Assembly (NCBI GenBank): GCA_964345075.1
Contig: CAYFPS010000011.1
Span: forward strand, 13,156-77,155
Direction of reading: 5' to 3'
Source: an uncultured Bacteroidaceae bacterium
Lineage (GTDB): Bacteria; CAIWAD01
Length of the DNA stretch: 64,000 nucleotides
The first letter of the stretch is position 1, and each line of letters starts with the position of its first letter. The position numbers were made by a program, and so were the translations under genes. Below the pieces are notes generated by a model, which was not told the origin of the DNA, did no database searches, and worked only from the letters and a program-made list of their open reading frames with translations. Of this stretch, positions 1,317 to 56,354 are shown one piece after another.

Positions 1317-1325
1317 GAGGCGATC

Positions 1326-21322: not shown

Positions 21323-21333
21323 AAAGGGGAACC

Positions 21334-26030: not shown

Positions 26031-26737
26031 AAGGCGAGCTCTTAAGGCTTGAGGCTGTAACACGCCACTATCATGTCGGCAGCGAAACCGTGCGTGCGCT
26101 GGATGGTGTGGATCTGGTGCTGGGCCGGGGCGAATACCTGGCCATCATGGGACCATCTGGCAGCGGCAAATCCACCCTGATGAATTTGCTGGGCTGCCTG
26201 GAACGACCCGGCTCCGGCAAGTATCTGCTGGATGGCGAAGATGTCGGATCGCTTGAGGACGATGCCCGGCTTTCCCGCTTGCGAGGCAGTCTGATCGGTT
26301 TTGTCTTTCAAACCTTCAACCTGCTGCCCAGGCTGGATGCAACCGACAATGTGGCCCTGCCGCTGGTCTATCAGGGCCTTCCCGCACCTGTTCGCACCGA
26401 GCGCGCGCTTAATGCCTTGAAGCGTGTCGGTCTGGAAAACCGCGCCAGCCATCGCCCGGCCGAAATGTCCGGTGGTCAAAGGCAGCGTGTCGCCATTGCC
26501 CGTGCGCTTGTCACACAGCCCAGCCTGATTCTGGCCGACGAACCCACCGGCAATCTGGACTCCAGAACCAGCGCTGAGATCCTGGACCTTTTCGACAGCC
26601 TTCATCAGGAAGGCCATAGCCTGATCGTTGTCACACATGAAGACGATGTGGCCGCCAGAGCGCAGCGCGTGATACATTTGCTGGACGGCAAGGTCGAGCG
26701 TGAGACAAGGCCGCGGAAGGAACTGGAGAAGGCATGA
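26027..26737 (+). CDS. ABC transporter ATP-binding protein, LolD/MacB-like
   Basis: Walker [11 protein letters not shown], signature [15 protein letters not shown], Walker [13 protein letters not shown]. No cognate permease gene in the unit. Confidence 0.85.
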
Positions 26738-27965: not shown

Positions 27966-29606
<1,641 letters not shown>

Positions 29607-39469: not shown

Positions 39470-41728
39470 CTATTTCAGGAGCAGGGCCTTGGATGTATCA
39501 CGCCAGTTCCCGGCTTCAATCGTGTAGAAGTATACGCCAGCAGGCAGCTGATCGGCGGACCAGCTAATCGAATGTGTTCCCGGGCCCATCAGTCCAAGGG
39601 CTTCGTCATGAACCCGCCTCCCCGACAGATCGTGCACCAGAAAGCGCACGGGCGAGGCAGTTCTTTGCTTCCAGTTGATTGTCGTTGAAGGATTGAAGGG
39701 GTTGGGATGATTGGGTAGAAGTTCAAAAGCAGCCGGAGCGGCGGTATCAACACCGATGGTGATTTCGCCCAGCTGCAGGCTGAAAGGATGGCTCTCACCA
39801 AAACCGGCAAAATCAGCGACAATCCAGTAGATGCCAGCTGGCAGGCCGATTGCTTCCAGCGCTTCGCCATCCGGACCTGCCCCCAGCTCGTTTTGGGCCA
39901 GACCACAGCTGCCCACAGGGTTTGCACAGTCACCATAGACCAGAATCACCTCATCGGCATCGCCTTCGCCAGTCAGTTCGACAAGCAGATTGGTCGCATC
40001 AGTCAGCTCCACCCTGAAGACCTGGTCCAGTCCGGGACTGCTGATCTCATTCGGGCAGCTGCTCCCGTCCACATGGGCCATTGAGGGAGCTTGTTCAACA
40101 TCGATCGAGTAGGTCCCTTCCAGAACGCCGATATCCGTGTAATCGCTGCACATTTCGCCCTCTGGCAGCTGGGCTGTTAAGGACAGCGCGTAATTCTGTG
40201 CCTCTGGAAGATCACCGGGCGCGTTGTGTGTGACAACCACGAAGTAGCTGCCGGCCGGCAGCAGTTCCACACTCAAGGTTTCGGGGTGGCAGGCCGGGGC
40301 ATCATCCACTGCATGGAGCACGGCGCCGTCCGTGGCGAAGTCCGTGATGTAGAGGGCGGCATCCAGCGCGTCTACATCGCAATGAAGCTCCAGAGCCATG
40401 GCGCTTTCAAGTTCGAGCAGGAACCAGTCCTGATCGCGCTCTCCGCCCTCGGCCCAGAGCGTTCCACAGACGAGATCGCCGGGCTGTATCACATCATAGC
40501 TTGAATTGGGCGGATCAGCACTCCAGCCTTCATTGGGCTCCACCTCGGGCTGGCCATCACAGCTGATTGCCTCGTGACCGGCGCAGGGGTCGCCACTGCA
40601 GGCAAGCTCCAGAGAATAGTCGATGGCTGTCAGACCGGAGGGTTCCGATCCGTGATCCACCACGATGTAATAGCTGCCTGAGGGAAGGGCTTCCACGCTG
40701 AAGGATTCGTTGTAACACGCGGGCAGGCCGTTTGCTTCTGCAAGCTGGGCACCATCCACTGCCTGCTCCATCAATCTTAGTCTGCCGTCAAAACCGCTGA
40801 CAGTAAGATTCACTTCGATGTTACCACCAAAGTGCGTGTAGAGGTACCAGTCGCCTGTTGTATCACCGTCTTCAAGTGTGCCGCAGATCAGCTCTCCACA
40901 GCGCAGGAGAGTGTGGCTGCCATCTTCCCAGCCCTGATTCGGCTCTGTTTCCGGCAGACCGACACAGTCTATGGCATCACATTCCGCTGGAGGATAGATG
41001 GAAATGGCTACTTCGTCTTCAAGCTGCAAGCCCGCGCCATTCAATCCGATTTGCAGGCCAACGGTGCCGGACTCATTTTCAACACCGACCGTAGCTGAGT
41101 TTACCCCACCCGGATCCAGATCCAGATACTGGAATGTGATCACGCCGAAAGGGCTCAGGATGGCCTGAAAACTGTGATGCTGCGAGTTGTTGTCGTAGCG
41201 GGGAACATCATCCCATTCGATGATGAAGAGATTGCGCTCCTCGTCATGCCAGGTCAGAATCGCGCCGCCCGCGTCAATCAGGATATCGTCCCACATCGGG
41301 CAGATGCAGTTGTTGGGCTGCACTGTCGAAGGAATGTTCGTGTTGATCCAGACCAGACCGTTGCCGTCAAAGGTCATGTAACCGTTGGTGGAGACCATGA
41401 TGCTGCTGTATTCATTCCCGTAAAAGGGAAAGGACCAGGGCAGATTCACTGTTTCCGCATCATCCAGTCCGCTCAGATTAAGCTGATCGCCAACCTGGTT
41501 GATTTCGATCCAGTCGAATTCGGGGCCGCCGGCCGTGCTGTTGCTGATCCAGAAATAGCCGAAACTGTCCGGCCCGCCACTGTCCCGTGTATCACGAAGG
41601 CTGGCCTCTTGCTGAATGTCGCTACTGTCAGGTGCAGGATCCCCCGGGCGTGCAGTGGCCGGGTGGATAATGGTCAATGTCGCCAGAGTGAGGCCGACCG
41701 GGCAAAGGCGTGAAAAGCGATGCTTCAT
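39470..41728 (-). CDS. T9SS cargo protein A (752 aa): one NIDO-like module, two PPC-like Cys modules, Por_Secre_tail CTD
   Basis: Signal peptide MKHRFSRLCPVGLTLATLTIIHPATA. GGPDSFGYFWISNS..GPEFDWIEI..VSTNGYMTFDGNG..CPMWDDIL..GG.I.. (NIDO-like). Two EPN..W..D.DWY-type modules. C-terminus LLPNHPNPFNPSTTINW...KALLLK. Confidence 0.8.
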   Translation of the reverse strand: MKHRFSRLCPVGLTLATLTIIHPATARPGDPAPDSSDIQQEASLRDTRDSGGPDSFGYFWISNSTAGGPEFDWIEINQVGDQLNLSGLDDAETVNLPWSFPFYGNEYSSIMVSTNGYMTFDGNGLVWINTNIPSTVQPNNCICPMWDDILIDAGGAILTWHDEERNLFIIEWDDVPRYDNNSQHHSFQAILSPFGVITFQYLDLDPGGVNSATVGVENESGTVGLQIGLNGAGLQLEDEVAISIYPPAECDAIDCVGLPETEPNQGWEDGSHTLLRCGELICGTLEDGDTTGDWYLYTHFGGNIEVNLTVSGFDGRLRLMEQAVDGAQLAEANGLPACYNESFSVEALPSGSYYIVVDHGSEPSGLTAIDYSLELACSGDPCAGHEAISCDGQPEVEPNEGWSADPPNSSYDVIQPGDLVCGTLWAEGGERDQDWFLLELESAMALELHCDVDALDAALYITDFATDGAVLHAVDDAPACHPETLSVELLPAGSYFVVVTHNAPGDLPEAQNYALSLTAQLPEGEMCSDYTDIGVLEGTYSIDVEQAPSMAHVDGSSCPNEISSPGLDQVFRVELTDATNLLVELTGEGDADEVILVYGDCANPVGSCGLAQNELGAGPDGEALEAIGLPAGIYWIVADFAGFGESHPFSLQLGEITIGVDTAAPAAFELLPNHPNPFNPSTTINWKQRTASPVRFLVHDLSGRRVHDEALGLMGPGTHSISWSADQLPAGVYFYTIEAGNWRDTSKALLLK

Positions 41729-41751: not shown

Positions 41752-41787
41752 CAAAGTAAAAGAAAAGGGTGACCCTTGGGCCACCCT
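41752..41787 (-). terminator. Intrinsic terminator after T9SS gene B
   Basis: Minus-strand hairpin aagggtggcc-caag-ggtcaccctt followed by ttcttttac. Confidence 0.55.
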
Positions 41788-41810
41788 TGATTGTCTAAAT
41801 CCAGCTGCTA

Positions 41811-44800
41811 CTACTTAAGCAGCACGGCCTTGCGCGTCGCCTGCCACTCGCCGCTTGACAGCGTGTATACATAGACGCCGCTGGGCAAGCTCGCTGCATT
41901 CCATGTGAAAGTATGGCTCCCCGGGCCGCGCAGCCCGAGATCTTCCTGCATCACACGCTCACCCTTCAGGTTGTAAATGCTGATTTCAGCCTTTGCCATT
42001 TCGGGCTGAATCCACTGCACGGTCGTGACCGGGTTGAAGGGATTGGGATAGTTCTGCCTGAGTTCGAAACTGAGCTCGCGCCCTTCCAGCAGGCCGCTGT
42101 TCATGTCGATCACCTGCATCACAAAGGGGTGACTTTCACCGTATCCGGCAAAGTCCGCCACCAGCCAGTAATCACCGGCAGGCAGACCCATGAACTCAAG
42201 CACTTCGCCTTCGGTGCCGGGGCCGTGATCGTTTGCGGCAGCACCACAGCTGATCGCGGGCGTCGCGCAGTTGCCAACCAGCAGAATCACTTCGTCGGCA
42301 TTGCCTTCGCCAGTCATGGCCACATGCAGGTCCATCGGTTCGGCCAGCACCACACGCAGCGTGTAATCCAGACCCGGGCTGGAAACATCACCCGGGCAGC
42401 CGGTGCCGCTGTGATGTGCGTACTCGGGCGCCGTGTCCGCGACCACCGTCCAGATGTCGTGGAAGTCGGGCACATCTTCGTAACCGTCACACATGTCCTG
42501 CGTGGGCAGGCTGCCGGAGACGGTCAGCGCATAGGCCTGCTCCTCGGGCACGCCGTTCATCTCGTTGTGGCCGATCACGATGAAGTAACTGCCAGCGGGC
42601 AGGGACTCAACCGAAATGCTTTCCGGGTGACAGGCCGGCGCGTCGTCCACCTCGTAAAGTACGCCGCCTTCAGGATTCATGTCCGTGATGAAGAGGGCTG
42701 CATCAAAGCCGTCAATTTCGCAGGAGACCACCAGCTCGGTCGCACTTTCCAGCTCCAGCAAGAACCAGTCCATGTCACGCTCGCCGGCATCGGCCCAGAC
42801 CGTACCACAAATGGTTTCGTCCAGAGCGATCACGCCATAGTTGCTGTTGGGCGGATCGGCGTTCCAGCCTTCGTTGGGTTCGGCTTCTGCCGTGCCACTG
42901 CAGTCGATGGGCTCGTGTCCGGCGCAGGGATCGCCCGAGCAGTTCAGCATCAGGGCATAACTCTGCGGGCCTTCCAGATCCGGATCACCGTCATGCTCCA
43001 CAACGATGTAATAGGAACCACTCTCCAGCTCGCTCAAGCTGAAGGCTTCGCCGAAGCAGCGCGGGAAGGTGTTGGCATCGGCCAGGATATCACCGCCCGG
43101 CGCACTTTCGCGCAGTGTGAGACGGGCATCAAAGTCGCTCACATCCACGATGACTTCGATGTTGCCGCCAAAGTGGGTGTAGAGGTACCAGTCGCTGTCG
43201 GTTGTGGTGCCGTCGCTTTCCAGTTCGCCACAGATCACATCGGCACAGCGAATGCTGTTGTAGCTACCGTCTTCCCAGCCCTGATTGGGCTCTACCTCGA
43301 CGATGCCCGTGCAATCAACCGGCTCACAGCTGGACTGGGGCAGATAGACCACCATCGTCTCGTCGGCCACGGAGCCGCCTTCACCCTGATAGCGATAACC
43401 CAGACCACCGGAAGCGTCTGCATTCTCGATACCGACATTGGCATTGGCCACATCGCTCTGATCCATTTCATCATAGGCAACTTCGATGATGCCGCTGGGA
43501 TAAAGGATGATCTCAAAGGTGAAGGGACCGCCCGAGCTGTAAGCCATGATGCCGTCGAACTGCACGATGAAGCGCTGCTCGTCTTCATCGTACTCGTAAT
43601 ACACGGTGCCGCCATTGTTCGGATTCAGGTCGTCCCAGAAGGGAGCGATCATGTTGTCCGGCGACCAGCCATCCCCATTGTAGAAGGGAATCGGGTTGGT
43701 GCTCCAGTAGCCTGTGTAACCCTGACCGAAGCTGATGTAACCGTTTGAAGCGATGTAGACTTCTGACTCGATGCCACCATACCAGGGGAAGTCGAAACCG
43801 ATATCGAAGGGACCATCGAAACTGTCGTCGCTCAAGGACGCAGCACTTCCACTGCCACTGATATCAACCCACTCGAAATCGGGACCAGTAGGATGATCGC
43901 TATTGACCCACGTGTAGCCATAGGCATCGGGGCCGCCGAAGCTGGGCGGACTGCCCCAGTAGCCGCTGTCCGTGTTGGAGGGATCCGACTCGCCCGCGTC
44001 GAAACTGGCGGTCACGTGATAATCATAGATGACATCCGCTTCCGAATCGTAGGAGCTGTCATCGGTGAAGTTCAGGCCCGTGGTCGTGGCAATCAATTCG
44101 CCATCACGGTAGACATTGTACTCGATGAAGACACGCTCATTCAGGTGGAAGATCTCGTTCACCCGGTTGACGGCTTCGTCCTTGCTCAAGCCGCGCTGCT
44201 GCAGCAGGTAAATGGCTTCTGTATCACAGGAGGGCGACACGCCGCCAAACCAGCGGGCCAACAGTCCGGGATTGACAGGTGGCATCCAGCTCAGGCCCGT
44301 ATACGACAGGAAGCCATCCGTTGCCACCAGCCCAACCGGCGGCCAGGTGTAACTGACAATGTTGAAGCTGTACGTCGGTGATACACGCGTGTTGGCGTTT
44401 TCCGAATTGTCCGTTGCCTCAACCCACCAGCTGATCATGCTGCCGGCATCCTGGTGGGGAATGTCCCCCTCGTATGTATCACCGCCAGCATTGTCCATGG
44501 CAACTTCCTGCGAAGCGCCACCGTTGATCTGATAAAACAGGCTGACCGAATCGATACCGGTCAGGTCGGTGATCTCGGCGGAAATGGTGTAATCGCCTTC
44601 CAGCTCGGTTTCCATGTCCACAGGCAGATCGTTCAGCACAATCATCGGAGGCTGGAAATCCCCTTCAAGGGCTTCCACACGAATGGCCAGTTCATCCACC
44701 AGCGCACCACCATCGCCATTGTAGTTGACCAGCAGGCCAATGGTGCCGTCACTGTTCTCGATACCAACCGTGGCAAAGGCCAGAGCGCCTTCTTCCAGGT

Positions 44801-47684
44801 CCAGATACTGGAAGTCCATGTCACCAGTGGGATGGAGGATGGCCTGGAAGGTCTGGTGCCAACCGTTGTTCTGATAAAGCGGAACTGCGTCCCACTGGAC
44901 AATGAAGCGATCATTATCGGTGTCGTGATACGAATAGACGCCACCTCCGGCTCCCAGATTGTAGTCATCCCACATCGGGTAAATGGAATCATTGGGCTCG
45001 AAGCCATCAGGGATCGATCCGTTGGTCCAGGCCAGACCATTGATGCCAAAGGTCATGTAGCCGTTGGACGAAACCGTGATAGTCGTGTAGGTCCAGTCGT
45101 AGAAGGGGAACTGCCAGGGCAGGTCGATGGTGACCATGTCGTCCAGGCTGAAGAGGCCCAGGTTGGTGCCCACATCGCTGATCTCAACCCAGTCGAAGGT
45201 CGGGCCTTCGGGGTCATGGCTGTTCGTCCAGGCATAGCCCATCTCATCCGGGCCACCGCTTGTCGGGCGGGCGCCACGCGATCCGGTGTCGCTATTGGAA
45301 AGATCCGACTCACCGGCATCAAACTGAGCCGTGACATGATAGCTGTACTCGACATTGGGGTCGGCCCCGCCGCCGGGCAGGTCGTAATAGATCGGATCGC
45401 TGGTCGTCCCGATCAGGACATCATCACGGTAGACATTGTAATTCAGGAAGGAGCGCTCACCGCCCTCTGCCAGCAGTTCCAGCCAGATGGCCTTGGCCTC
45501 TTCGCGGTCAAGCCCGTGCTCGCGGGTCAGGCGCAGCATGGCTTCATCAAAACTGTTGGGCATTTCCGTGCCGAACCAGCGGGCTGCCAGTAGCGGCTCG
45601 ACCGGGGCAAACCAGGTGATCAGGCAGTAATCCAGCAGGCCGTCGCTGGCGACAAGCCCAAAGGGCGGCCAGGTGTAGCTGACCACTTCAAAGGAATAGT
45701 TGGCTGTAACACGAAGGTTCTGGCGTTCGCTGGTATCCACCGCCTCGATGCGCCACACGATCAGGCTGCCCATTTCCTGATGGGGAATGCCTGCCTCGTA
45801 TGTATCACCGTCCGTGTTCGTCATGACGACTTCAAACTCTTCGCCATTGTTCACGCGGTAGAACAGGCTGGCGGAGCCTACACCGGTGTCATCGGTAATG
45901 GTGGCTTCCACCATGTGATCACCGGGCAGCTCGGCTTCAACGGTCTCGGGCAGATTGGTGAAGCTGACGATGGGGGCCAGGAAGTCGCCGTCCAGCTGAC
46001 CGAAGAGGATGGCCGTGCCGTCTGCCAGGATGCCGCCCTCGCCATTGTAGTTGTACTCGAGGCCTATTGTGCCGTCCATGTTCTCGATGCCCACGCTTGC
46101 GCCCAGCAGGTCACCTTCGTCCAGATCCTGATGAACAATGATGATCTGGCCGCTTTCATAGAGCTGCGCTTCAAAGGAGAAGGGCACGCTGCCACCAAAG
46201 GCCGGAACCTGTTCGAACTGCACAATGAAGGCGCCACTGCTTTCGTCAAGACCGTAATACACGCTGCCGCCGGAACTGGGGTTCATGTCGTCCCAGAACA
46301 TGGCGATCATGTCGTTGGGCGTGCTTGTGCTGGGCATGATTGTGTTACCCAGACTTCCACTTCCCACACCAAAAGAGATGAAACCGTTGGAGCCGATGTA
46401 GAGCTCGTCCCAGGTGTTCTCGTAGAAGGGGAAGGTAAAGCCGATATCGACCGGCCCGAAACTGCTGTCGTCGGAAAGCCCGGCGATTTCGCCGGTGGCA
46501 CTGATATCGATCCACTCGACTCCGGGGCCTTCGGGATCCAGACTGTTCATCCAGGCATAACCCATTTCGTCCGGTCCTCCGGCCGTCGGGCGACCGGGTG
46601 TGGGATCGATGCTGACTTCATAGTCACCAACCTGTGTCCCCTCGTCGCCGATCAGCAGGTGATAGCTTCCGGCGGCCAGATTGAGCTCGCGCATACGCGC
46701 GGCGCCGGGCATGATGCTGCAGTCGCTCCAGCCCTGTGAGGCCACCAGCATGCCACCGTCGCAGGGATCGCCATCAAAGAGGTAGAGATCCAGGGCGTAG
46801 CTGGTACCGGAGAAGCAGGCGTCAAAATCATAGAAGCCGTCTTCCTCAATGGTGACGATGTAGCCGTGATCAGCGCCATCACCGCCAACCACACTCACGC
46901 CATCCGCATTGTTGCCAATCAGGAGCGCGGGCGCTGTAACGGTGGCCTCCGGGGCGTACTCTTCACAGGGCGTGAGGCACTCATCATCGCTGAAGGTCAC
47001 GGTCAGGTCGTAGTTACCACTGTCGCCGCCATAGGCATCGATCACCAGATAGTAGGTGCCGGCCTGCAGGCAGCAGGGAGGCAGATCGGACGACCAGTTT
47101 GCACAGTCAGCGCCATCGTCATTGGCGGCAATCAGCACCATGTTTTCATCAAAGATGCCGATGCAGCTGTCATAGTCGGCCGTGTTACAAACACTGGCCG
47201 CAACCTCGTAGGAAGCCTCCAGCGTAAAGGTGTACCAGGCGTCGGGACCGTCGAAACTGCTTGTGGTATAGAAGCTGCTGTTGCATTCAGTCGGTGTGGC
47301 CTGACCAACCGGAACCGTGTCGCTGAAACCGACAGTCGTTCCCGTATCCGTAAAACTGCCGCCTGCGGCAAAGGTGATTTCCACCGCGTCTTCCGGTGTA
47401 TCACCGCCATCGCGCTGATTCTGCTGTGTTACACCGCGATTTGGAAATAGTCGATCCTTCAGCCATTCCGGCGCGGGCTGGCCGATCGACTTGTAATAGG
47501 CGTAGAGAGCCTGATCATCAACCGTCGCGGGAAGTCCCAGTTCAGCCTTGAGGCTGTTCAGTGATACACCGCCTGCATCGGCTTTTTGCTGCAGCTCGAC
47601 CTCGCTCAAAGCGAGCGCGCTGGATGCACCAAGCAGGAGACCGCCTGCGATCGCGGGCAGCCATCGAGAACTAACGTTGTACAT
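41811..47684 (-). CDS. T9SS cargo protein B (1957 aa): two N-terminal PPC-like modules, three [NIDO-like + Ig-like + Fn3-like] repeats, two PPC-like modules, Por_Secre_tail CTD
   Basis: Signal peptide MYNVSSRWLPAIAGGLLLGASSALA. Three repeats of ..RPT.GGPD.MGYAW.NS.DP.GP...W..IS..G ... SSNG[FY].[ST]FG ... [PM][FM]WDD.NP..GG.VYY ... RFIVQ[FW]. C-terminus NYPNPFNPVTTVQW...KAVLLK. Confidence 0.85.
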   Translation of the reverse strand: MYNVSSRWLPAIAGGLLLGASSALALSEVELQQKADAGGVSLNSLKAELGLPATVDDQALYAYYKSIGQPAPEWLKDRLFPNRGVTQQNQRDGGDTPEDAVEITFAAGGSFTDTGTTVGFSDTVPVGQATPTECNSSFYTTSSFDGPDAWYTFTLEASYEVAASVCNTADYDSCIGIFDENMVLIAANDDGADCANWSSDLPPCCLQAGTYYLVIDAYGGDSGNYDLTVTFSDDECLTPCEEYAPEATVTAPALLIGNNADGVSVVGGDGADHGYIVTIEEDGFYDFDACFSGTSYALDLYLFDGDPCDGGMLVASQGWSDCSIMPGAARMRELNLAAGSYHLLIGDEGTQVGDYEVSIDPTPGRPTAGGPDEMGYAWMNSLDPEGPGVEWIDISATGEIAGLSDDSSFGPVDIGFTFPFYENTWDELYIGSNGFISFGVGSGSLGNTIMPSTSTPNDMIAMFWDDMNPSSGGSVYYGLDESSGAFIVQFEQVPAFGGSVPFSFEAQLYESGQIIIVHQDLDEGDLLGASVGIENMDGTIGLEYNYNGEGGILADGTAILFGQLDGDFLAPIVSFTNLPETVEAELPGDHMVEATITDDTGVGSASLFYRVNNGEEFEVVMTNTDGDTYEAGIPHQEMGSLIVWRIEAVDTSERQNLRVTANYSFEVVSYTWPPFGLVASDGLLDYCLITWFAPVEPLLAARWFGTEMPNSFDEAMLRLTREHGLDREEAKAIWLELLAEGGERSFLNYNVYRDDVLIGTTSDPIYYDLPGGGADPNVEYSYHVTAQFDAGESDLSNSDTGSRGARPTSGGPDEMGYAWTNSHDPEGPTFDWVEISDVGTNLGLFSLDDMVTIDLPWQFPFYDWTYTTITVSSNGYMTFGINGLAWTNGSIPDGFEPNDSIYPMWDDYNLGAGGGVYSYHDTDNDRFIVQWDAVPLYQNNGWHQTFQAILHPTGDMDFQYLDLEEGALAFATVGIENSDGTIGLLVNYNGDGGALVDELAIRVEALEGDFQPPMIVLNDLPVDMETELEGDYTISAEITDLTGIDSVSLFYQINGGASQEVAMDNAGGDTYEGDIPHQDAGSMISWWVEATDNSENANTRVSPTYSFNIVSYTWPPVGLVATDGFLSYTGLSWMPPVNPGLLARWFGGVSPSCDTEAIYLLQQRGLSKDEAVNRVNEIFHLNERVFIEYNVYRDGELIATTTGLNFTDDSSYDSEADVIYDYHVTASFDAGESDPSNTDSGYWGSPPSFGGPDAYGYTWVNSDHPTGPDFEWVDISGSGSAASLSDDSFDGPFDIGFDFPWYGGIESEVYIASNGYISFGQGYTGYWSTNPIPFYNGDGWSPDNMIAPFWDDLNPNNGGTVYYEYDEDEQRFIVQFDGIMAYSSGGPFTFEIILYPSGIIEVAYDEMDQSDVANANVGIENADASGGLGYRYQGEGGSVADETMVVYLPQSSCEPVDCTGIVEVEPNQGWEDGSYNSIRCADVICGELESDGTTTDSDWYLYTHFGGNIEVIVDVSDFDARLTLRESAPGGDILADANTFPRCFGEAFSLSELESGSYYIVVEHDGDPDLEGPQSYALMLNCSGDPCAGHEPIDCSGTAEAEPNEGWNADPPNSNYGVIALDETICGTVWADAGERDMDWFLLELESATELVVSCEIDGFDAALFITDMNPEGGVLYEVDDAPACHPESISVESLPAGSYFIVIGHNEMNGVPEEQAYALTVSGSLPTQDMCDGYEDVPDFHDIWTVVADTAPEYAHHSGTGCPGDVSSPGLDYTLRVVLAEPMDLHVAMTGEGNADEVILLVGNCATPAISCGAAANDHGPGTEGEVLEFMGLPAGDYWLVADFAGYGESHPFVMQVIDMNSGLLEGRELSFELRQNYPNPFNPVTTVQWIQPEMAKAEISIYNLKGERVMQEDLGLRGPGSHTFTWNAASLPSGVYVYTLSSGEWQATRKAVLLK

Positions 47685-47787
47685 AGGGGCTCCTATTTAG
47701 CCTGAGGCCAGATTCTTGGCAGGTTCCGCTTGCAGCTTACAAAGTGGGGGGCGTTGATTCGAGGAAAAAACCACTATACAGCAGCTT

Positions 47788-47828
47788 TAACAATGAAAGG
47801 GGCGGCCCTCGTGAATGGACCGCCCCTT
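47788..47828 (-). terminator. Intrinsic terminator after T9SS gene C
   Basis: Minus-strand hairpin aaggggcggtcc-attcacga-gggccgcccctt followed by tcattgtt. Confidence 0.5.
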
Positions 47829-47854
47829 GCTTGAATGCGATTGCTTGGGCTGAA

Positions 47855-50800
47855 TTACTTCAGCAGCACGGCCTTCTTTGTATCAACGTGGGCTCCGACT
47901 TTCAGCGTGTAAATGTACACACCACTGGAAAGGCTACTGGCATCCCACATGTAGTTGTGTGTGCCGGCATTTCGCAGACCCAGATCCTGCTGCATGACCA
48001 TTTCACCCATCAGGTTGTAGATGGCAAGCTCGGCCTTTTCCATCTCCGGTTGCGTCCAGCTGATGGACGTGACCGGGTTGAAGGGGTTCGGGTGATTCTG
48101 CTTCAGCTGGAAGCTCAGCTCGCGACCTTCTGCCAGGCTGGAGTTCATGTCGATGATCTCCATCACGAAAGGATGGGCTTCACCGTAGCCGGCAAAGTCG
48201 GCCACCAACCAGTAGTCACCGGCGGGCAGACCAGCAAAGGTCAGGGTTTCGCTCTCGGTGCCGGCGCCAAAGTCATCGACGGCCGCACCGCAGCTGATGG
48301 CAGGCGTTTCGCAGTTGCCAACCAGCAGAATGACTTCGTCAGCATTGCCGGCGCCGGTCATGGTTACCTGCAGGTCGGTCGTCTGGGAGAGCACGATGCG
48401 AACCGTGTAGTCCAGACCCGGACTGGAAACATCACCCGGGCAACCGGTACCCGAATGGTGGGCATACTGCGGGGCCGTGTCGGCCACGACGGTCCAGATA
48501 TCGTGGAAGTCGGGCACATCTTCGTAGCCTTCGCACATGTCCTGCTCGGCCAGGTTGCCGGAAACGGTCAGTGAATAGGCCTGCTCTTCGGGCACACCGT
48601 AAAGGTCGTTGTGACCGATCACGATGAAGTAGCTGCCGGAGGGCAGGGCTTCGTAACTGAGGCTTTCCGGTGCGCAGGCCGGCGCGTCGTCCACTTCCAG
48701 CAGCACGCCACCGGCGGGATCCATTTCCGTGAGGAAGAGGGCAGCATCAAAGGCATCCACCTCGCAGCTGATGGTCAGGTTGATCGCACTTTCCAGCTCC
48801 AGCAGGAACCAGTCCATGTCGCGCTCGCCGTTCTCGGCCCAGACCGTACCACAAATGGTTTCGTCCAGAGCGATCACGCCGTAGCTGCTGTTGGGCGGAT
48901 CGGCGTTCCAGCCTTCGTTGGGTTCGGCTTCCGCCGTACCTTCACAGTCGATGGGATTGTGTCCGGCACAGGGATCGCCCGAGCAGGTCAGGCTGAGCGA
49001 GTAGCTCTGCGCGCCTTCCAGATCCGGATCACCCACATGCTCGACCACGATGAAGTAGGAACCACCTTCCAGCTCCGTGACGGCAAAGGCCTCGTCAAAA
49101 CAGCGCGGGAAGACATCGGCTTCGGCAATTGTATCACCGCCGTTTTCAAACTCCACCAGACTGATGCGGCCGTCAAAGTCGCTCAGGTCGAGGCTGACTT
49201 CAATGTTGCCACCGAAGTGCGTGTAAAGGAACCAGTCGCTGTCGGTTGTGGTGCCGTCGCTTTCAAGCTCGCCGCAGATCACATCATCGCAGCGGATCAC
49301 ATTCCAGGTGTTGTCGGCCCAGCCACCATTTGGCTCGGCCTCGGCAATGCCATCACACTCAACCGGCTCGCAGTTGGAGGGCGGTGTCATGATCATGGTG
49401 ACTTCATTGCTGATCGCGCCACCTTCACCGTTCACATTGTAAGCCAGACCAATCGAGGCATCGCTGTTCTCGATACCGACCGTTGCATTTTGCAGGTCGC
49501 CGGGATACATGTCTTCCCAGCTGATCTGGATGATGCCGCTCTGGTAAAGCACGGCCTGGAAGGTGTTGGTGTATTCCGGCATGGCCAGATGGGGAACATC
49601 CTGCCACTGAATCACGACGCAGCTCTGGGCTTCGATGTATTCGTAGTAGATGACGCCGCCAACGGAGGTGTAAAGGTCATCCCAGAAGGGCGCGATCAGA
49701 TCGTTGGGATCATCGGCCGTGGGAATCGGGTCGCTCGTGTAATCGGTGCCGTCACCACCGAAGGTCAGGTAACCGTTGGAACTGACCAGCGCGCTGCTGT
49801 AAAAGCTTCCATAGAAGGGGAAGTCGAAGGGCAGGTTGATCTGACCACTTGTGTCGTCGCCGACGATCGCCAGATCCTGACCGCTACCACTGATGTCGAT
49901 CCACTCGTATTCGGGACCGGCCACATCCAGGCTGCTCACCCAGATGTAACCGAAGGCATCGGGACCGCCACTGGTGGGACGGCTGCCACGGAATCCGCTG
50001 TCCGTATTGGAAGCATCAGATTCACCACTGTCGAATTCGGCGGTCACATGGTAGTCGTACTCGACATCCTGCTCGGCGCCATCACCGGGCATGTCATAGT
50101 AGAAGAGCTCGGTCGTCGTGGCAATGTCTTCACCATCACGATAAACATGATAGGTGATGAACTCGCGGCTGGAGCCGGCCTGCATGCTTTCCCAGACTTC
50201 CAGCGCCTCGGTCTTGCTCAGGCCGTGCTCGCGGACCAGACGATCCAGCGCTTCTGTCTCACCGGCCGGCATGTCGCCACCGAACCAGGCAAGCGCCATG
50301 GTCGGCTCCACCGGAGCCATCCAGGTGATCTGCGTGTAATCCAGCAGTCCGTCGGTCGCGTCCAGTCCGAAGGGCGGCCAGGTGTAGCTGACCACTTCAA
50401 AGCTGTAGCTTTCCGTGATACGCACATTGGCCAGATCGGAAGCATCAACGGCCTCCAGCCACCAGACCACCGTGTTACCGGCATCCTGATGGGGAATCGC
50501 ACCCGTGTAGTCGTCGCCGGCCGTGTTCGTCAGCGCAACTTCAACGGCCGCGCCGCCATTCAGCGTGTAATACAAATTGGCGCTGGTCAGACCACTCTCG
50601 TCGGTGATGGTGGCTTCCACCACATAGTCACCGGTCAGTTCGGTTTCGATGGTCGTGGAAGGCATGGCGTCCAGCGTGATCAGCGGGGCAATGAAGTCGC
50701 CTTCCAGCTGCGTGAAGAGCACGGCCGTACCGTCAATGATGCTGCCGCCATCCGTGTTACAATTGTAGGAAAGACCAATGGTCCCGTCGGCATTTTCGAT

Positions 50801-52807
50801 ACCGATGGTGGCACTGGTCAGGTCGCCCTGCATGTCTTCCAGCTGAATCAGGATACTGCCATCGGCATTCATGATGGCCTGGAAGGTGTTGGGCGGACTG
50901 CTGGGGCCGGGGTAATCGGGCACGCCCGTGAACTGCACAATGAAGCGATCGTTGGCCGTGTCTTCCAGATAGTGCACGCTTCCGACGCCATCGCCCGGAT
51001 CCAGATCGTCCCAGAACATGGAAATCATGGCATTGGGCGAACCGGCATCGGGCAGACAGACATTGCCCAGACTGGAACTGGCGGCCTGGAAGTTCAGGTG
51101 ACCGTTGGAGCTGATGTAGATCTCGCTGTAGACACCCTCATAGAAGGGGAAGTCGATGCCCATGGGGAAGGGGCCGAGGCCCTGATCGTCACCAAGAGAA
51201 ACGAGCACGGCAGCGGGATCGCCCGAAATGTCCACCCAGCTGTACTCGGGGCCATCGGGATCCTGATTATTGACCCAGGCATAACCCATTTCGTCCGGGC
51301 CGCCGCTGGTCGGGCGCTCGGGCGTGGACTGAATCATGACCTCGTAGTTGCCCACGGTGGTCCAGTCGTCACCGATCAAGAGGTGATAGCTGCCGGGCTC
51401 CAGGGAGCGTTCCATCAGGCGCGCAGCACCCCAGGGGGCCGTGCAGCTGGAGGAGTTGCTTTCATAAAGCAGGGTGCCACCGTCGCAGGGGTCGCCATCA
51501 AAGAGGGAAAGGGTCAGGCTGAAATCGCTGCCCGGCATGCAGGCATCGAAGTCGTAAAGACCCGCTTCGTCAATGGTGACCACATAGCCGACATCCGGTG
51601 CGGCGCCCCAGTAGATGTCCACGCCATCGCCCGTGTTGCCCACAAGGGTCGTGGGAACGGAAACCGTTTCCAGCGGCTCATAGGCATCACAGGGTGAATA
51701 GACATTGATCGTGAAGGCACCTTCGCCCGAACCGGGACTGGCCACACGCATGTGGTAGGTGCCGGCTTCCAGCGCCTGATTGCCCAGCAGGCCCGGGAAG
51801 GCCGCGCCCCCTTCGGTGCAGCTGACGCCGCCCGACTGGGCCAGAATCACGCCGCCATCGCAGGGCGAAGCATCCATCAGGTAGAGAATGACATCAACTT
51901 CGGTGCCAGCGTCGCAGGCATCAAAGGAGTAGATGCCGGAAGTGCCCAGGGTCAGCGTGAAACCGCTGTCGCCCCAGCCATTGCCGTCCACATCCGCCGC
52001 GTCAACCGTGCTGCCGCTGAAGCTGCCGGGAATGGTGGCCTCGGCCAGTTCATCGGCGTACTGATCGCAGGGTTCCTGGCAGATTGCGTCACTGAAGCTG
52101 ACCGTCAGGTCGTAATCACCCTCGGCCGTGCCGTAGGAATCCACCACCACATAGTAGGTGCCGGCCGGCAGGCAGCAGGGAGGCAACAGGGAGGTCCAAC
52201 CGGTGCAATCGGCGCCATCATCGTTGACGGCAACCAGGTTGAGGTTTTCGTCCAGAATGCCCAGACAGCTGTCGTAGGTGGCCGCGTCACAGACGGTGGC
52301 CGAGACTTCGTAGCTGTCATCCAGCGTAAAGGTGTACCAGGCATCCGGCCCGTTGAAGCTGGATGTGGAATAATAGCTGGTGTTACAAGCGGTGGGCGGA
52401 GGCGTACCTACCAGCAGCACATCGCTGAAGCCGACGGTCGTTCCCGAATCGGTCCAGTCGCTGCCCGCTGTAAAGATGATTTCCACAGCTTCTTCCGGCG
52501 AATCACCACCATCGCGCTGGATGCGATCGGTCGTGCCAGCCAGCGGAAAGAGGCGGCTGATCAGCCATGCCGGGGCTTCTTCACCCTGTTGCTTGTACCA
52601 GGCGTAAAGGTCTTGGTCAGCCAGATTCCGCTCCGCGCCGGAATCCAGCAGGTGGCCGTATTCGGCCTCAAGCTCAGCCATGCTCTGTCCGCTGGTCCGG
52701 GACTTCTGCTCAAGGTCCTCGATGGACAGAGCAAAGCCTGCTGGGCAAGCAATGAACAGAGCAATCCACCCGGTCAATACGGGCACCAATCGTCCGATGT
52801 GTGACAT
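47855..52807 (-). CDS. T9SS cargo protein C (about 1650 aa), paralog of B with the same module order
   Basis: Probable start MSHIGRLVPVLTGWIALFIACPAGFALS at 52807, which has the same GGAGCCCCTATG context as gene B. The track ORF up to 52894 adds 29 aa with no signal-peptide character. N-terminal 200 aa show strong paralogy to B. C-terminus NHPNPFNPVTSISW...KAVLLK. Confidence 0.85.
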   Translation of the reverse strand: MSHIGRLVPVLTGWIALFIACPAGFALSIEDLEQKSRTSGQSMAELEAEYGHLLDSGAERNLADQDLYAWYKQQGEEAPAWLISRLFPLAGTTDRIQRDGGDSPEEAVEIIFTAGSDWTDSGTTVGFSDVLLVGTPPPTACNTSYYSTSSFNGPDAWYTFTLDDSYEVSATVCDAATYDSCLGILDENLNLVAVNDDGADCTGWTSLLPPCCLPAGTYYVVVDSYGTAEGDYDLTVSFSDAICQEPCDQYADELAEATIPGSFSGSTVDAADVDGNGWGDSGFTLTLGTSGIYSFDACDAGTEVDVILYLMDASPCDGGVILAQSGGVSCTEGGAAFPGLLGNQALEAGTYHMRVASPGSGEGAFTINVYSPCDAYEPLETVSVPTTLVGNTGDGVDIYWGAAPDVGYVVTIDEAGLYDFDACMPGSDFSLTLSLFDGDPCDGGTLLYESNSSSCTAPWGAARLMERSLEPGSYHLLIGDDWTTVGNYEVMIQSTPERPTSGGPDEMGYAWVNNQDPDGPEYSWVDISGDPAAVLVSLGDDQGLGPFPMGIDFPFYEGVYSEIYISSNGHLNFQAASSSLGNVCLPDAGSPNAMISMFWDDLDPGDGVGSVHYLEDTANDRFIVQFTGVPDYPGPSSPPNTFQAIMNADGSILIQLEDMQGDLTSATIGIENADGTIGLSYNCNTDGGSIIDGTAVLFTQLEGDFIAPLITLDAMPSTTIETELTGDYVVEATITDESGLTSANLYYTLNGGAAVEVALTNTAGDDYTGAIPHQDAGNTVVWWLEAVDASDLANVRITESYSFEVVSYTWPPFGLDATDGLLDYTQITWMAPVEPTMALAWFGGDMPAGETEALDRLVREHGLSKTEALEVWESMQAGSSREFITYHVYRDGEDIATTTELFYYDMPGDGAEQDVEYDYHVTAEFDSGESDASNTDSGFRGSRPTSGGPDAFGYIWVSSLDVAGPEYEWIDISGSGQDLAIVGDDTSGQINLPFDFPFYGSFYSSALVSSNGYLTFGGDGTDYTSDPIPTADDPNDLIAPFWDDLYTSVGGVIYYEYIEAQSCVVIQWQDVPHLAMPEYTNTFQAVLYQSGIIQISWEDMYPGDLQNATVGIENSDASIGLAYNVNGEGGAISNEVTMIMTPPSNCEPVECDGIAEAEPNGGWADNTWNVIRCDDVICGELESDGTTTDSDWFLYTHFGGNIEVSLDLSDFDGRISLVEFENGGDTIAEADVFPRCFDEAFAVTELEGGSYFIVVEHVGDPDLEGAQSYSLSLTCSGDPCAGHNPIDCEGTAEAEPNEGWNADPPNSSYGVIALDETICGTVWAENGERDMDWFLLELESAINLTISCEVDAFDAALFLTEMDPAGGVLLEVDDAPACAPESLSYEALPSGSYFIVIGHNDLYGVPEEQAYSLTVSGNLAEQDMCEGYEDVPDFHDIWTVVADTAPQYAHHSGTGCPGDVSSPGLDYTVRIVLSQTTDLQVTMTGAGNADEVILLVGNCETPAISCGAAVDDFGAGTESETLTFAGLPAGDYWLVADFAGYGEAHPFVMEIIDMNSSLAEGRELSFQLKQNHPNPFNPVTSISWTQPEMEKAELAIYNLMGEMVMQQDLGLRNAGTHNYMWDASSLSSGVYIYTLKVGAHVDTKKAVLLK

Positions 52808-52911: not shown

Positions 52912-52939
52912 AAAAAAGGGTCCCGCCTGCGCGGGACCC
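52912..52939 (-). terminator. Intrinsic terminator after T9SS gene D
   Basis: gggtcccgc-gcag-gcgggaccc hairpin followed by TTTTTT on the minus strand, directly after the gene D stop. Confidence 0.8.
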
Positions 52940-52961
52940 TGTTGCTTCTGATAAAGCTGGA

Positions 52962-55900
52962 TTACTTCAGAAGGACGGCCTTCTTGGTATCCGTGAAGTC
53001 GCCAACGGTCAGCGTGTAGATGTACACACCGCTGGAAAGGCTGCTGGCATCCCAGACAAAGCTGTGGCTACCGGCGGCGCGGCTACCGAGCTCGACGCTC
53101 TGAACCTTTTCACCCATGATGTTGAAGACCGTCAGGTTGGCCTGGGCCAGCTCGGGCTGGTTCCAGCTGATGGTCGTCGTCGGGTTGAAGGGGTTCGGGT
53201 AGTTCTGCTCGAGGCTGAAGCTGGCCACGATGGTCGGGTCAACATCGATGTCATAACCGAAGCAGAAGTTCAGGTCATAGGCATCGCTGCCCCAACCGGC
53301 ACCGCTGTCCAGCAGGCTGGTCATGTCGGCACCCGTCGAGCTGCTGCCCCAGAGGAACCAGCAGCTGGCGTCGCCGGCACCCTGAACACCGATCCAGCCT
53401 TCGGCCATTTCCAGCGGAGCGGGCAGGTCGAAGGTGAAGGTCATGCTCTCGTAAACACCGGCGTAGAGGTTGCCCGTCGGGACACCACTCAGGCTGACGT
53501 CGAAGGACTCAACCTCGTTGCCCGGCAGGTTGCCGGCTTCGTAGAAGGTGATGTAGAAGGGCGTGGGATCTTCGGTACAGGCATTCCAGGCGGCACCGTC
53601 GTTGAAGAGGGCCAGACCGTCAAAGCTGACGCTCGTGATGGCCTGCGGCACGTTGCCAAAGGCTTCTGCGCGGTTGTAGAAAGTACCGGCGCCGTCGGTG
53701 TCAAATTCGGAAACGCCGAAGCTCCAGCTGTCATCCACACCGGCAACCGTCTGGCAGTCAACATACTCGATCGTGCCACCGCAGGTGGTCTCAAGCGTGA
53801 AGGTGTAGTCACCACCGGTCCAGGCGTAGCAGTCAACCACCACATAGTAGGTGCCGGCGTCGTAGCTGCCCGTGATCGATTCGTCGGAACCGACGGCCCA
53901 GGGCATGTCAAGGCAATCCAGCGGATCGCAGCTGCCGAGCAGAACCAGATCAAGGTCTTCTGCATCCGGGGAGCTCATCGTGATGGTCATCAGACCGCCA
54001 GCGTGCTCGAGCTCGTACCAGACTTCCGGTCCGTCTTCACCGCCGAAGCAGTAGTCTTCGTACATGTTGCCAACCTGGCTGTCGGCGTTGGAACCCATCA
54101 TGAGGCCATTGCACTCGAGGGTGATGGTGGCATCGCAGGGATCGGTGAATTCACAGGGAACACAGTCCACGAAGAGGCTGTAGGCCTGCTCGTCAACAAC
54201 ACCTTCAAAGCCGTTGTGACCCATCCACACGTAGTAGATACCGGCGGGCAGGCACTGGCTCATGGCCTCGCCATCATAGCTCTCGGGCTCGCAGAAGCCG
54301 GCGTTGTTGACGGTGGCGATGATGTTGTAAGCGTCGTCCATGATGAAGACCAGACCGTCGAACATTTCGACATCGGCGCTGATCGTCATGTAGGTGTCAC
54401 CCAGCGTGAAGACCTCGAACCAGTCGGCATCACGGAAGCCACCATCGGCCCAGACGGTACCGCAGGTGGTCGTGCCGCATTCGATCGTGCCGAAGGTGTC
54501 GTCGCCACCAAAGTCCACCGGACCATTGTTGGGCTCGCCTTCGTCCAGGCCGTCGCACTCGATGGGCTCGCAGCTGCCACAGGAGATGTTCAGGCTGAAG
54601 TTACCTTCGCTAGAACTGTAACCATCGACAACCAGCCAGTAGGTACCGGCATCCAGGGCCATCACAATCTGGCTCTGCAGGCCGCAGCTGTCGTCGTTGG
54701 AGGCGATCATGGTGCCGCCACTGACCGGGCAACCATCCCACAGGGTCAGGTAGCTGTCGTAGTCCGTGCCGCCGTCGCAAAGGTCGAAGGTCACAGGGGC
54801 GGTGGCATCGACGTCAATCTGGAAGAAGAAGTCGCCGGAAGCATTGTTCACGTAATTGAACATGCCGACGGTGCTACCCGCGTAGCTGTCACCGCAGCCA
54901 AGCACAACGGGATCCACGCAGGGATCGTCGATGTTGCAGGCTTCGGCCACGACAGTCAGGCCATAGTTGGCAGGAATGTCAACACCCGTGAAGCCATTGG
55001 GGCCAACCCACACATAGTAGGTGCCGGCAAAGAGGCAGGCGGAGACAATCTGCTCGTCACCACAGATACCGGCGTTGTCAGCCGTGTAGAGGATGGTGGC
55101 GGCGTCGCTGTCGATGATGAACATCAGAGCGTTGAATTCTTCCACGGCGAGGTCGGCGGTAATGATCGAGTTCTCGGTCACGACCAGCTCGAACCAGTCC
55201 GTGTCGCGGGAATCGAAGCCCGTCTCGTCATCGAAGTAGGTGTAAACCGTACCGCAGACGGTTTCGCCACTGGTGATGGAACCGAAGGTGCCGTCGCCAT
55301 TGGGGCCGTCATTGGGCTCGACTTCAGCCGTGCCGTCGCAGTTGATGGGATCGCAGCTGTTGCAGGTCACGTTCAGGCTGAAGTTACCTTCGCTGGCACT
55401 GTAACCGTCCACAACCAGCCAGTAGGTGCCGGCGGTCAGGGTGGCGTCAATCTGGCTCTGCAGGCCGCAGCTGTCGTCGTTGTTGGCGATCATCGTGCCG
55501 CCGTCGGTTGGGCAGGCATCCCACAGGGTCAGGTAGCTGTCATAGTCCGTGCCGCCGTCGCAAAGGTCGAAGGTCACGGGGCCGTCGGAGGCCAGATCAA
55601 TCTGGAAGAAGAAGTCGCCAGCAGCGTTGTTGACATAGTTGAACATGCCAACCGTGCTGCCCACATAGTTGTCACCACAGCTGAGGACAACCGGATCGAT
55701 GCAGGGATCGTCACCGGCCTGGCCTTCTTCTGCGGTAAAGGCTACGTTGCCACCTTCGCCGTAGTAGTCCGTGATGGCGATGATGTAGTCAACGCCCGTC
55801 TCGAAGACGAAATCGCCCTGCGTCAGGTAGGTGGCCCAGGCTGCGACGGCGCAGCCACTGTCGCCGTCACGATAGAAGAGCTCAACCATCGTGTCACAGG

Positions 55901-56354
55901 CGTCGAAGATGTACAGGTCGGTGTCACAGTCGGTGCCATCAACACAGGTGTCGATGTTCAGGCCAACGCCCGTACCCGTCCAGGCAAAGTACTGGAAACC
56001 GCCAGCGGGAATCGCCCAGGTGGTTCCCGCTGAAGCGAGAATGTCTTCGGCAGAAGCACAGTCTTCGTTACGGTTCTCGAGGCTGGGCGTGACGCGGTTG
56101 GCCGTGCGGAGGTGGGCTTCCACCTTGGCCAGCTGTTCGGCACTCAGTTCGCCCGTGCTACCGAGATTGCCCCTCAGGGCTTCGTTCTCAACCACATCCT
56201 TGACAACGAGCTCGGCCGAGTTGCCGAAAGGAACGTTCTCGAGGTTCTGGTTGCTGTTTGCCTTGCTGCTCGTGGAAGCCGCGGAAATGCCCAGCGAAGC
56301 ATAGGCGCTACCCGCGACGGCCAGGACGAGACCAGCCGTAAGCAATTTCTTCAT
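52962..56354 (-). CDS. T9SS cargo protein D (1130 aa) built of repeated PPC-like Cys-containing modules with Por_Secre_tail CTD
   Basis: Signal peptide MKKLLTAGLVLAVAGSAYA. Repeats of ..EPN.GP...G....CGTV......D.DWFE..... and DLCDGGTDYDSYLTLWD.CP..GGTMIA.NDDSCGLQSQI (two near-identical copies). C-terminus NYPNPFNPTTTISW...KAVLLK. Confidence 0.85.
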   Translation of the reverse strand: MKKLLTAGLVLAVAGSAYASLGISAASTSSKANSNQNLENVPFGNSAELVVKDVVENEALRGNLGSTGELSAEQLAKVEAHLRTANRVTPSLENRNEDCASAEDILASAGTTWAIPAGGFQYFAWTGTGVGLNIDTCVDGTDCDTDLYIFDACDTMVELFYRDGDSGCAVAAWATYLTQGDFVFETGVDYIIAITDYYGEGGNVAFTAEEGQAGDDPCIDPVVLSCGDNYVGSTVGMFNYVNNAAGDFFFQIDLASDGPVTFDLCDGGTDYDSYLTLWDACPTDGGTMIANNDDSCGLQSQIDATLTAGTYWLVVDGYSASEGNFSLNVTCNSCDPINCDGTAEVEPNDGPNGDGTFGSITSGETVCGTVYTYFDDETGFDSRDTDWFELVVTENSIITADLAVEEFNALMFIIDSDAATILYTADNAGICGDEQIVSACLFAGTYYVWVGPNGFTGVDIPANYGLTVVAEACNIDDPCVDPVVLGCGDSYAGSTVGMFNYVNNASGDFFFQIDVDATAPVTFDLCDGGTDYDSYLTLWDGCPVSGGTMIASNDDSCGLQSQIVMALDAGTYWLVVDGYSSSEGNFSLNISCGSCEPIECDGLDEGEPNNGPVDFGGDDTFGTIECGTTTCGTVWADGGFRDADWFEVFTLGDTYMTISADVEMFDGLVFIMDDAYNIIATVNNAGFCEPESYDGEAMSQCLPAGIYYVWMGHNGFEGVVDEQAYSLFVDCVPCEFTDPCDATITLECNGLMMGSNADSQVGNMYEDYCFGGEDGPEVWYELEHAGGLMTITMSSPDAEDLDLVLLGSCDPLDCLDMPWAVGSDESITGSYDAGTYYVVVDCYAWTGGDYTFTLETTCGGTIEYVDCQTVAGVDDSWSFGVSEFDTDGAGTFYNRAEAFGNVPQAITSVSFDGLALFNDGAAWNACTEDPTPFYITFYEAGNLPGNEVESFDVSLSGVPTGNLYAGVYESMTFTFDLPAPLEMAEGWIGVQGAGDASCWFLWGSSSTGADMTSLLDSGAGWGSDAYDLNFCFGYDIDVDPTIVASFSLEQNYPNPFNPTTTISWNQPELAQANLTVFNIMGEKVQSVELGSRAAGSHSFVWDASSLSSGVYIYTLTVGDFTDTKKAVLLK

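Follow-up and report, generated by a model that had tools for sequence, protein, structure and literature searches.

What does a domain of the nidogen type (NIDO) do, in repeated copies, on giant proteins of a bacterium? The question is raised by contig CAYFPS010000011.1 of assembly GCA_964345075.1, deposited as an uncultured Bacteroidaceae bacterium, of which we analyzed 64,000 nucleotides (positions 13,156 to 77,155 of the forward strand); this whole stretch is called the window here, and all coordinates refer to it. A first-pass annotation had proposed that the giant proteins encoded at 41811-52807 each carry three NIDO-like modules and are type IX secretion system (T9SS) cargo. We find that this interval holds two minus-strand genes, B and C, which belong to a row of four head-to-tail paralogues running in the order D, C, B, A on the minus strand, and that the modules on these proteins are almost certainly NIDO homologues on T9SS cargo. 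The proteins are built from NIDO-like modules, immunoglobulin-like (Ig-like) and fibronectin type III-like (Fn3-like) domains, beta-sandwich domains of the pre-peptidase C-terminal (PPC) type, and a T9SS C-terminal domain (CTD), arranged as follows.

Gene A, 39470..41728, minus strand: 752 aa; putative signal peptide, one NIDO-like module, three PPC-like domains, T9SS CTD; lies outside the interval first annotated
Gene B, 41811..47684, minus strand: 1957 aa; putative signal peptide, two PPC-like domains, the series NIDO-like, Ig-like, split Fn3-like twice over, a third NIDO-like module, three PPC-like domains, T9SS type A CTD
Gene C, 47855..52807 (open reading frame to 52894), minus strand: three PPC-like domains, the series NIDO-like, Ig-like, Fn3-like once, a second NIDO-like module, three PPC-like domains, CTD
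Gene D, 52962..56354, minus strand: 1130 aa; paralogous T9SS cargo with PPC-like domains only, without a NIDO-like module

The open reading frame (ORF) of gene C has 29 codons 5' of Met30 (52807), and a start at Met30 gives a normal signal peptide. The true start is probably at 52807 (Met30), because the longer form, from 52894, has no entry in the protein collection that was searched.

NIDO-like modules and their metazoan relatives

A hidden Markov model (HMM) of the module, run over all six frames of the whole window, finds exactly six NIDO-like copies.

B1, 45975..46613 (gene B residues ~358-580), minus strand: NIDO-like module; Pfam NIDO 28.7 bits, bacterial-module HMM 270 bits
B2, 44616..45305 (gene B residues ~799-1022), minus strand: NIDO-like module; Pfam NIDO 31.7 bits, six-frame HMM scan
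B3, 43257..43976 (gene B residues ~1239-1466), minus strand: NIDO-like module; Pfam NIDO 36.7 bits, six-frame HMM scan; the copy modeled with AlphaFold2 (AF2)
C1, 50615..51337 (gene C residues 520-746), minus strand: NIDO-like module; Pfam NIDO 34.1 bits, six-frame HMM scan
C2, 49370..50008 (gene C residues 965-1188), minus strand: NIDO-like module; Pfam NIDO 50.8 bits, six-frame HMM scan
A1, 40931..41614 (gene A residues 40-260), minus strand: NIDO-like module; Pfam NIDO 30.5 bits, six-frame HMM scan

The counts are thus three in B, two in C, one in A and none in D, and not three in each giant protein as had been supposed. The motif and HMM scans both rule out that gene C hides a third module. 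The module is about 200 aa long and contains the motifs that had been quoted for it (GGPDxxGYxW, SNG..F, [FM]WDD, G.VYY, RFIVQ and VGIEN). The Pfam and BLASTP E-values place the likeness far beyond chance. In a motif scan, GGPDxxGYxW falls at residues 369, 810 and 1250 of gene B, 531 and 976 of gene C and 51 of gene A, each time followed by SNG..F, [FM]WDD and VGIEN. The six modules share 30-51% pairwise protein identity, with E-values as low as 1e-61 when compared with one another by BLASTP. The repeat unit itself is real, with a measured period of 441-445 aa or 1.32 kb (441 aa in gene B) in place of the ~450 aa and ~1.4 kb first estimated. An AF2 model of B3 is all-beta, with a mean predicted local distance difference test (pLDDT) of 86 and a predicted template modeling score of 0.86; Foldseek found no match to this model below E 0.1 in the PDB.

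The NIDO-type identity proposed by the first-pass annotation holds by Pfam matches, by profile-profile comparison and by reciprocal retrieval. The check with hmmscan and PF06119 that it had suggested was made on each module alone, and all six lie above the gathering threshold of 25 bits, at 28.7-50.8 bits. The whole proteins reach 77.8 bits (E 1.3e-21) for gene B and 72.3 bits (E 7e-20) for gene C, and the PF06119 alignments to the modules cover model positions 2-56 and/or 78-145 of 186. For the profile comparison, the six window modules were combined with 13 metagenomic homologues into a bacterial profile of 19 sequences, and the metazoan profile was made from 14 SNED1/alpha-tectorin-like sequences of vertebrates, amphioxus, Lottia (a mollusc), Lamellibrachia (an annelid) and Exaiptasia (a cnidarian). 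The program hhalign joins the two profiles over 128 columns with 98.8% probability (E 7.4e-17), pairing DD..GP.DIGF.FPFYG, SNG..SF, FWDD, G.VYY, FIVQF and TFQ.IL with SNED1 residues 39-194; this alignment spans module residues 41-172 and leaves ~40 residues at the start of the module and ~50 at its end unaligned. In the reverse direction, the bacterial profile retrieves the Rana temporaria protein XP_040182910.1 at E 1.5e-141 and matches each of its 15 NIDO domains (2609 bits by Pfam). Residues invariant in the metazoan set (N75, G76, F80, P89, W105, D107 and G114) are aligned by hhalign to those invariant in the bacterial set (F61, N76, G77, F81, P95 and D114). On these sequence grounds, we conclude that the bacterial modules are homologous to metazoan NIDO.

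What is common to the two sides is a homologous core of ~130 residues, which in animals is found in nidogen-1/2, MUC4, alpha-tectorin, SNED1, Drosophila mesh and C. elegans DEX-1 (PF06119 / SMART SM00539). The core is marked by the motifs DD..(G).I.(F/L).FPF(F/Y)G, (S/N)NG..SF, P, FW.D.D, G.VYY, FIV/FVA..W and TFQ..L. Metazoan NIDO and the bacterial module are also alike in being extracellular and mostly beta, and in that both can form tandem arrays (15 copies in the frog). However, the bacterial module has a conserved N-terminal extension of ~40 aa, with GGPDxxGYxW...W(V/I)(D/E)IS, that is absent from metazoan NIDO, whereas the metazoan domain has a helical insertion of ~25 residues and a glycine-rich loop, both of which the bacterial module lacks. 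The domain partners differ as well: T9SS CTD, PPC, dockerin and subtilase in bacteria, EGF, AMOP, vWD and G2F in metazoans.

Secretion signals, spacers and the age of the repeats

That these proteins are T9SS cargo, as had been claimed, is borne out by CTD families above their cutoffs in all four paralogues. Matches to TIGR04183 (cutoff 23 bits) end 3-5 residues before the stop codon in A, B, C and D, and PF18962 scores above 27 bits. The CTD of gene D scores 39.6 bits with TIGR04183, and the other three are as follows.

39488..39706, minus strand: T9SS type A CTD of gene A; TIGR04183 34.2 bits
41823..42050, minus strand: T9SS type A CTD of gene B; TIGR04183 40.6 bits, also PF18962
47867..48091, minus strand: T9SS type A CTD of gene C; TIGR04183 34.3 bits

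At the other end, A, B, D and, when read from Met30, C have a hydrophobic N-terminus with an A-x-A/L-S site, which we read as a putative Sec signal peptide. Substrates with a type A CTD are handled by the PorV shuttle and can be anchored at the surface or released (PMC12618676).

The modules had been described as each followed by Ig-like and Fn3-like segments. Sequence profiles confirm both identities, in a spacer of ~245 aa that stands behind B1, B2 and C1; B3, C2 and A1 instead run directly into PPC-like domains, which are Cys-flanked after these terminal modules.

45684..46007, minus strand: Ig-like domain (like CBM56 and the immunoglobulin-superfamily (IgSF) domain of peptidylarginine deiminase, PPAD) after B1; sequence profile
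45270..45683, minus strand: Fn3-like domain with helical insertion, after the Ig-like domain of B1; sequence profile, helices in the linker model
44355..44678, minus strand: Ig-like (CBM56-like) domain after B2; Pfam CBM_56 27.5 bits (cutoff 27)
43950..44354, minus strand: Fn3-like domain with helical insertion, after the Ig-like domain of B2; sequence profile, helices in the linker model
50396..50719, minus strand: Ig-like (CBM56-like) domain after C1; sequence profile
49985..50395, minus strand: Fn3-like domain with helical insertion, after the Ig-like domain of C1; sequence profile
42090..43286, minus strand: three PPC-like beta-sandwich domains of gene B, between its last NIDO-like module and the CTD; PF04151 32.1 bits, paralogy to the gene D repeats

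A profile of 18 copies of the Ig-like domain, from the window and related proteins, matches in the PDB the Ig-like domain of the P. gingivalis PPAD (E 2.3e-6) and the CBM56 of the beta-1,3-glucanase BglH (E 2.9e-4), and Pfam CBM_56 (PF22184) matches 11 of the 18 copies at E<=0.01, with 40.7 bits in the orthologue P0043. PPAD is itself T9SS cargo. The likeness to PPAD and BglH is limited to this spacer domain and does not involve the NIDO-like module, and glucan binding by the spacer is putative. For the Fn3-like half, a profile of 15 sequences finds titin Fn3 at E 1e-5, with weaker matches to many other Fn3 domains. Because this match falls in two pieces (strands A/B and F/G) with helices predicted between them, the second half of the spacer fits an Fn3 domain split by a helical insertion of ~45 residues; the helices come from a poor AF2 linker model, made from a three-sequence alignment and with a pLDDT of 36.

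How old are the repeats? The DNA had been called recombination-prone, which the comparison of the units contradicts. The intragenic DNA repeats are only ~65% identical (44244-44806 vs 45570-46132), the units are 38-46% identical in protein, and the longest exact runs are 19 nt between B1 and B2 and 18 nt between C1 and C2, against 9-13 nt in shuffled sequence. For efficient RecA-dependent recombination, exact identity over some 20-30 nt or more is needed. Copy number is also constant among orthologues: in three orthologues of gene B (P0031, P0043 and P0058; 49%, 47% and 42% identical from end to end) the three modules stand where they do in gene B, and an orthologue of gene C at 48% identity (P0121) has two, as in gene C. 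Because the repeats are this diverged and their number is kept in orthologues at 42-49% identity, the module architecture appears to be old and stable. The best recombination substrates of the region would instead lie outside the NIDO-like modules. An exact run of 47 nt is found between the C-terminal PPC-like regions of B (42790) and C (48834), which are 71% identical over 2.5 kb, and gene conversion between B and C at the PPC region is possible. Gene D holds an internal duplication (54529-54929 vs 55312-55712) of 401 nt, 83% identical and with an exact run of 35 nt; no other direct repeat of the region is as similar. The part of gene A outside its NIDO-like module runs collinear to the last, C-terminal third of B and C, and the module itself is closest to B2 (49-52% identity); the two observations together suggest domain shuffling among the paralogues.

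Past the stop codons of B, C and D, a consensus scan finds GC-rich hairpins followed by T-runs, at a distance of 20-45 nt.

41765..41788, minus strand: terminator-like hairpin past the gene B stop; consensus scan only
47797..47828, minus strand: terminator-like hairpin past the gene C stop; consensus scan only
52917..52940, minus strand: terminator-like hairpin past the gene D stop; consensus scan only

From these predicted hairpins, each giant gene may be a separate transcription unit.

The bacterial family and the function of proteins A-C

The first-pass annotation regarded NIDO-like domains as rare in bacteria and a triple tandem on T9SS cargo as unusual, and neither view survives a wider search. 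A search with the module profile gives 38,799 protein clusters (made at 50% identity) with E<=1e-3, a minority of them eukaryotic; 23,223 of these clusters match at E<=1e-10 and 6,569 at E<=1e-30. In bacterial assemblies taken at one genome per species, two exact peptide patterns gave more than 599 candidates, with at least 578 confirmed loci. These come from Zixibacteria, Krumholzibacteriota, Latescibacterota, Eisenbacteria, Ignavibacteria, Cloacimonadota, Calditrichota, Fibrobacteraceae, Bacteroidota and Rhodothermales, from the cultured Gracilimonas mengyeensis DSM 21985, and from Clostridia/Bacillota, Cyanobacteria, Acidobacteriota, Anaerolineae and Deltaproteobacteria. Three or more copies are present in 87 of the 150 best-scoring representatives, a set ranked by total score and therefore biased to multi-copy proteins. 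Apart from the frog protein, which is the 15-copy match, arrays not known to be eukaryotic reach 14 copies, in P0040, a protein from a JGI metagenome whose taxon is unverified. Around 80 genome loci that were fetched, each with 3 kb on either side, 31 of the 83 reading frames within ±3 kb hold at least two copies. A metagenomic protein of 2383 aa (P0016) has seven copies, at 193-208 bits each by the local HMM, and no Pfam NIDO match at E<=0.001. Pfam NIDO therefore misses part of the bacterial family, and database annotation understates its size. At the same time, bacterial proteins of this type are already labeled PF06119 by standard pipelines, and the window proteins are further examples of them. 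Full-text literature searches found no paper on bacterial NIDO domains.

In what company does the module occur elsewhere? The settings described below are all extracellular or at the cell surface, and in each of them the module supplements an adhesin or enzyme. The module shares one ORF with a Peptidase_S8 subtilase at 39 of the 80 loci and in 48 of the 150 top representatives. Such subtilases (in Gracilimonas mengyeensis DSM 21985, L068; Allocoleopsis sp., L035; Cloacimonetes, L018; and also at Zixibacteria loci) carry the same module at their C-terminal side, with 40-47% identity, often together with HYDIN/ASH-type Ig, Fn3, CarboxypepD_reg or BACON-like domains and with T9SS, dockerin or RTX tails. 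Unlike them, window proteins A-D have neither the fervidolysin-type prodomain nor the subtilase catalytic domain. In short metagenomic proteins the module is joined to a T9SS tail or a dockerin. On the adhesin side, residues 51-191 of Flavobacterium johnsoniae RemZ (Fjoh_0803, a RemA-family gliding adhesin; PDB 8gl6 chain D), at its N-terminus, match the module profile at E 1.4e-15. RemZ is large T9SS type A cargo like the window proteins, but it has a single N-terminal copy of the module, and only its CTD is resolved in PDB 8gl6. The lectin activity of RemA is attributed to a separate lectin domain. The Photorhabdus PA-IL-type galactose-binding lectin PllA (PDB 5odu) was compared with the module profile as well, and its E of 0.043 was judged too weak to use, though a match of this kind would suit a lectin-like role.

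This context of fusions and tandem arrays suggests a binding role for the bacterial NIDO relatives. For A-C, we favor, with somewhat better than even confidence, multivalent, adhesin-like binding proteins of the cell surface. They would be exported by Sec, translocated by the T9SS and then displayed at the surface or released, as for cargo with a type A CTD. The NIDO-like modules would be the units that bind the ligand, an extracellular polymer that would be either a glycan or an insoluble protein; the Ig/Fn3 pairs would serve as spacers between the internal modules, and having the module in several copies would increase avidity. A glycan ligand is favored by the sandwich fold and by the likeness of the spacer to CBM56, insoluble protein by the subtilase fusions and PPC domains. 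Pfam and NCBIfam find no catalytic family in A-D, and phmmer, run with the full length of gene B, matched no PDB sequence.

Several points weigh against this reading. Because NIDO has no established function even in animals, the binding role is drawn from domain context. The CBM56 likeness is marginal in the window copies, the best of which reaches 27.5 bits at a cutoff of 27 (25.8 bits, E 1.2e-5, by whole linker) and the others 15.2 and 16.7. The conserved polar residues of the module, N of SNG, D of WDD and E/N of GIEN, could equally form a metal site or an active site. Finally, no T9SS machinery gene (SprA/PorV/PorU/GldKLMN) was recognized among the window ORFs that were scanned.

Could the proteins serve proteolysis instead of adhesion? 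They would then be non-catalytic paralogues of the NIDO-bearing subtilases, and their task would be either to attach to the insoluble protein on which those enzymes act or to dock secreted proteases and present them. The frequent fusion to Peptidase_S8 described above speaks for such targeting scaffolds, as do the PPC domains of which the window proteins are largely built and the presence of an S8 subtilase gene in the window (12169-14394). However, A-D have no protease domain, and the window subtilase lies 25 kb away on the opposite strand, without a NIDO module, a matching CTD or a functional link to them. We regard a scaffold of this kind as unlikely, though as the strongest of the competitors. 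A degenerate protease domain in A-D was ruled out as well, since an S8 HMM made from four NIDO-bearing subtilases and Pfam both gave no match. It is more doubtful still that the proteins form a structural surface coat or biofilm matrix, in which four abundant paralogues would self-assemble through NIDO as in the animal extracellular matrix. Animal NIDO proteins are matrix components (bioRxiv 10.1101/2020.07.27.223107), and the four tandem paralogues, the terminator-like hairpins behind B, C and D and the repetitive beta-sandwich composition would suit a coat, but abundance and self-association would have to be assumed, and elsewhere the module is mostly accessory to enzymes and adhesins.

The polar residues noted above also invite the idea that the module is enzymatic, as a cryptic catalyst or a domain that processes itself. 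Bacterial modules never vary at the N of SNG or at the second D of WDD, and they strongly conserve the E/N of GIEN; the metazoan set, too, is invariant at the N-G and W-x-D positions, and a study of SNED1 describes NIDO as a domain without a clearly assigned function, structure or known interactor (bioRxiv 10.1101/2020.07.27.223107). Yet the nearest folds, at low Z, are non-catalytic sandwich domains, the module is usually added to proteins that already have a catalytic domain, and tandem repetition is typical of binding modules, so that we consider an enzyme very improbable. Least credible of all is a recently expanded, recombination-prone array that provides copy-number or antigenic variation of a surface protein. 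There are indeed four tandem paralogues, and B and C share exact runs of up to 47 nt in their C-terminal PPC region. Such variation is nevertheless largely refuted by the divergence of the intragenic units, whose exact runs are modestly above those of shuffled sequence, and by orthologues that keep module number and positions.

Host, neighboring genes and wider meaning

The assembly is filed under Bacteroidaceae. GroEL encoded in the window (27969-29606) has 89% identity to its counterpart in a Candidatus Delongbacteria metagenome-assembled genome and ~75% identity to Calditrichota and KSB1 sequences. The T9SS type A cargo shares this genome with genes for the flagellar hook-associated proteins FlgK and FlgL (30-2249, plus strand). 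Because GroEL is closest to Delongbacteria and flgK and flgL are present, the host is a flagellated bacterium of the Fibrobacterota-Chlorobiota-Bacteroidota (FCB) group, Candidatus Delongbacteria-like and equipped with sorting signals of the T9SS type, and not one of the Bacteroidota proper.

The genes around the row suggest no dedicated partner system for A-D. Directly upstream of gene D, on the same strand, is a bacillithiol synthesis cluster of bshC, bshB (a PIG-L deacetylase) and bshA (GT4) at 56630-59918 (minus strand), with a sigma-70-like promoter match at 56570-56541 between bshA and gene D. On the downstream side of gene A come genes for a ComM-like ATPase and for an ABC exporter. The S8 subtilase at 12169-14394 is on the plus strand, has 741 aa, and shows no NIDO-like module or match to the CTD profile of A-D. 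Further off are the methyl-cycle genes metH (B12-dependent methionine synthase), MTHFR, metK and ahcY, at 2250-6756 and 20141-22743. Two large ORFs of 647 and 422 aa (22819-26030, plus strand), with no Pfam match at E<=1e-5, adjoin an ABC ATPase gene (26027-26737) on its upstream side and may be membrane or periplasmic partners of that ATPase.

The window proteins themselves are an ordinary case: further multi-domain T9SS cargo, with a domain that Pfam already detects. The family to which they belong is of modestly wider interest. Bacterial NIDO relatives are numerous, often in tandem and frequently fused to subtilases, although NIDO figures in the literature as a matrix domain of animals; how large the bacterial family is, and how often it is linked to subtilases, may thus be under-appreciated. 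We put forward, tentatively and with more doubt than confidence, that animal NIDO is a small branch of a very large family of bacterial extracellular modules, with tens of thousands of clusters, many of them below the sensitivity of Pfam, and that the bacterial modules are substrate- or matrix-binding units of subtilases and of adhesins anchored by T9SS or dockerin. If this is true, single-module proteins such as that of gene A (752 aa) would be a tractable route to a first NIDO structure and its ligand, and also to the origin of the metazoan domain.

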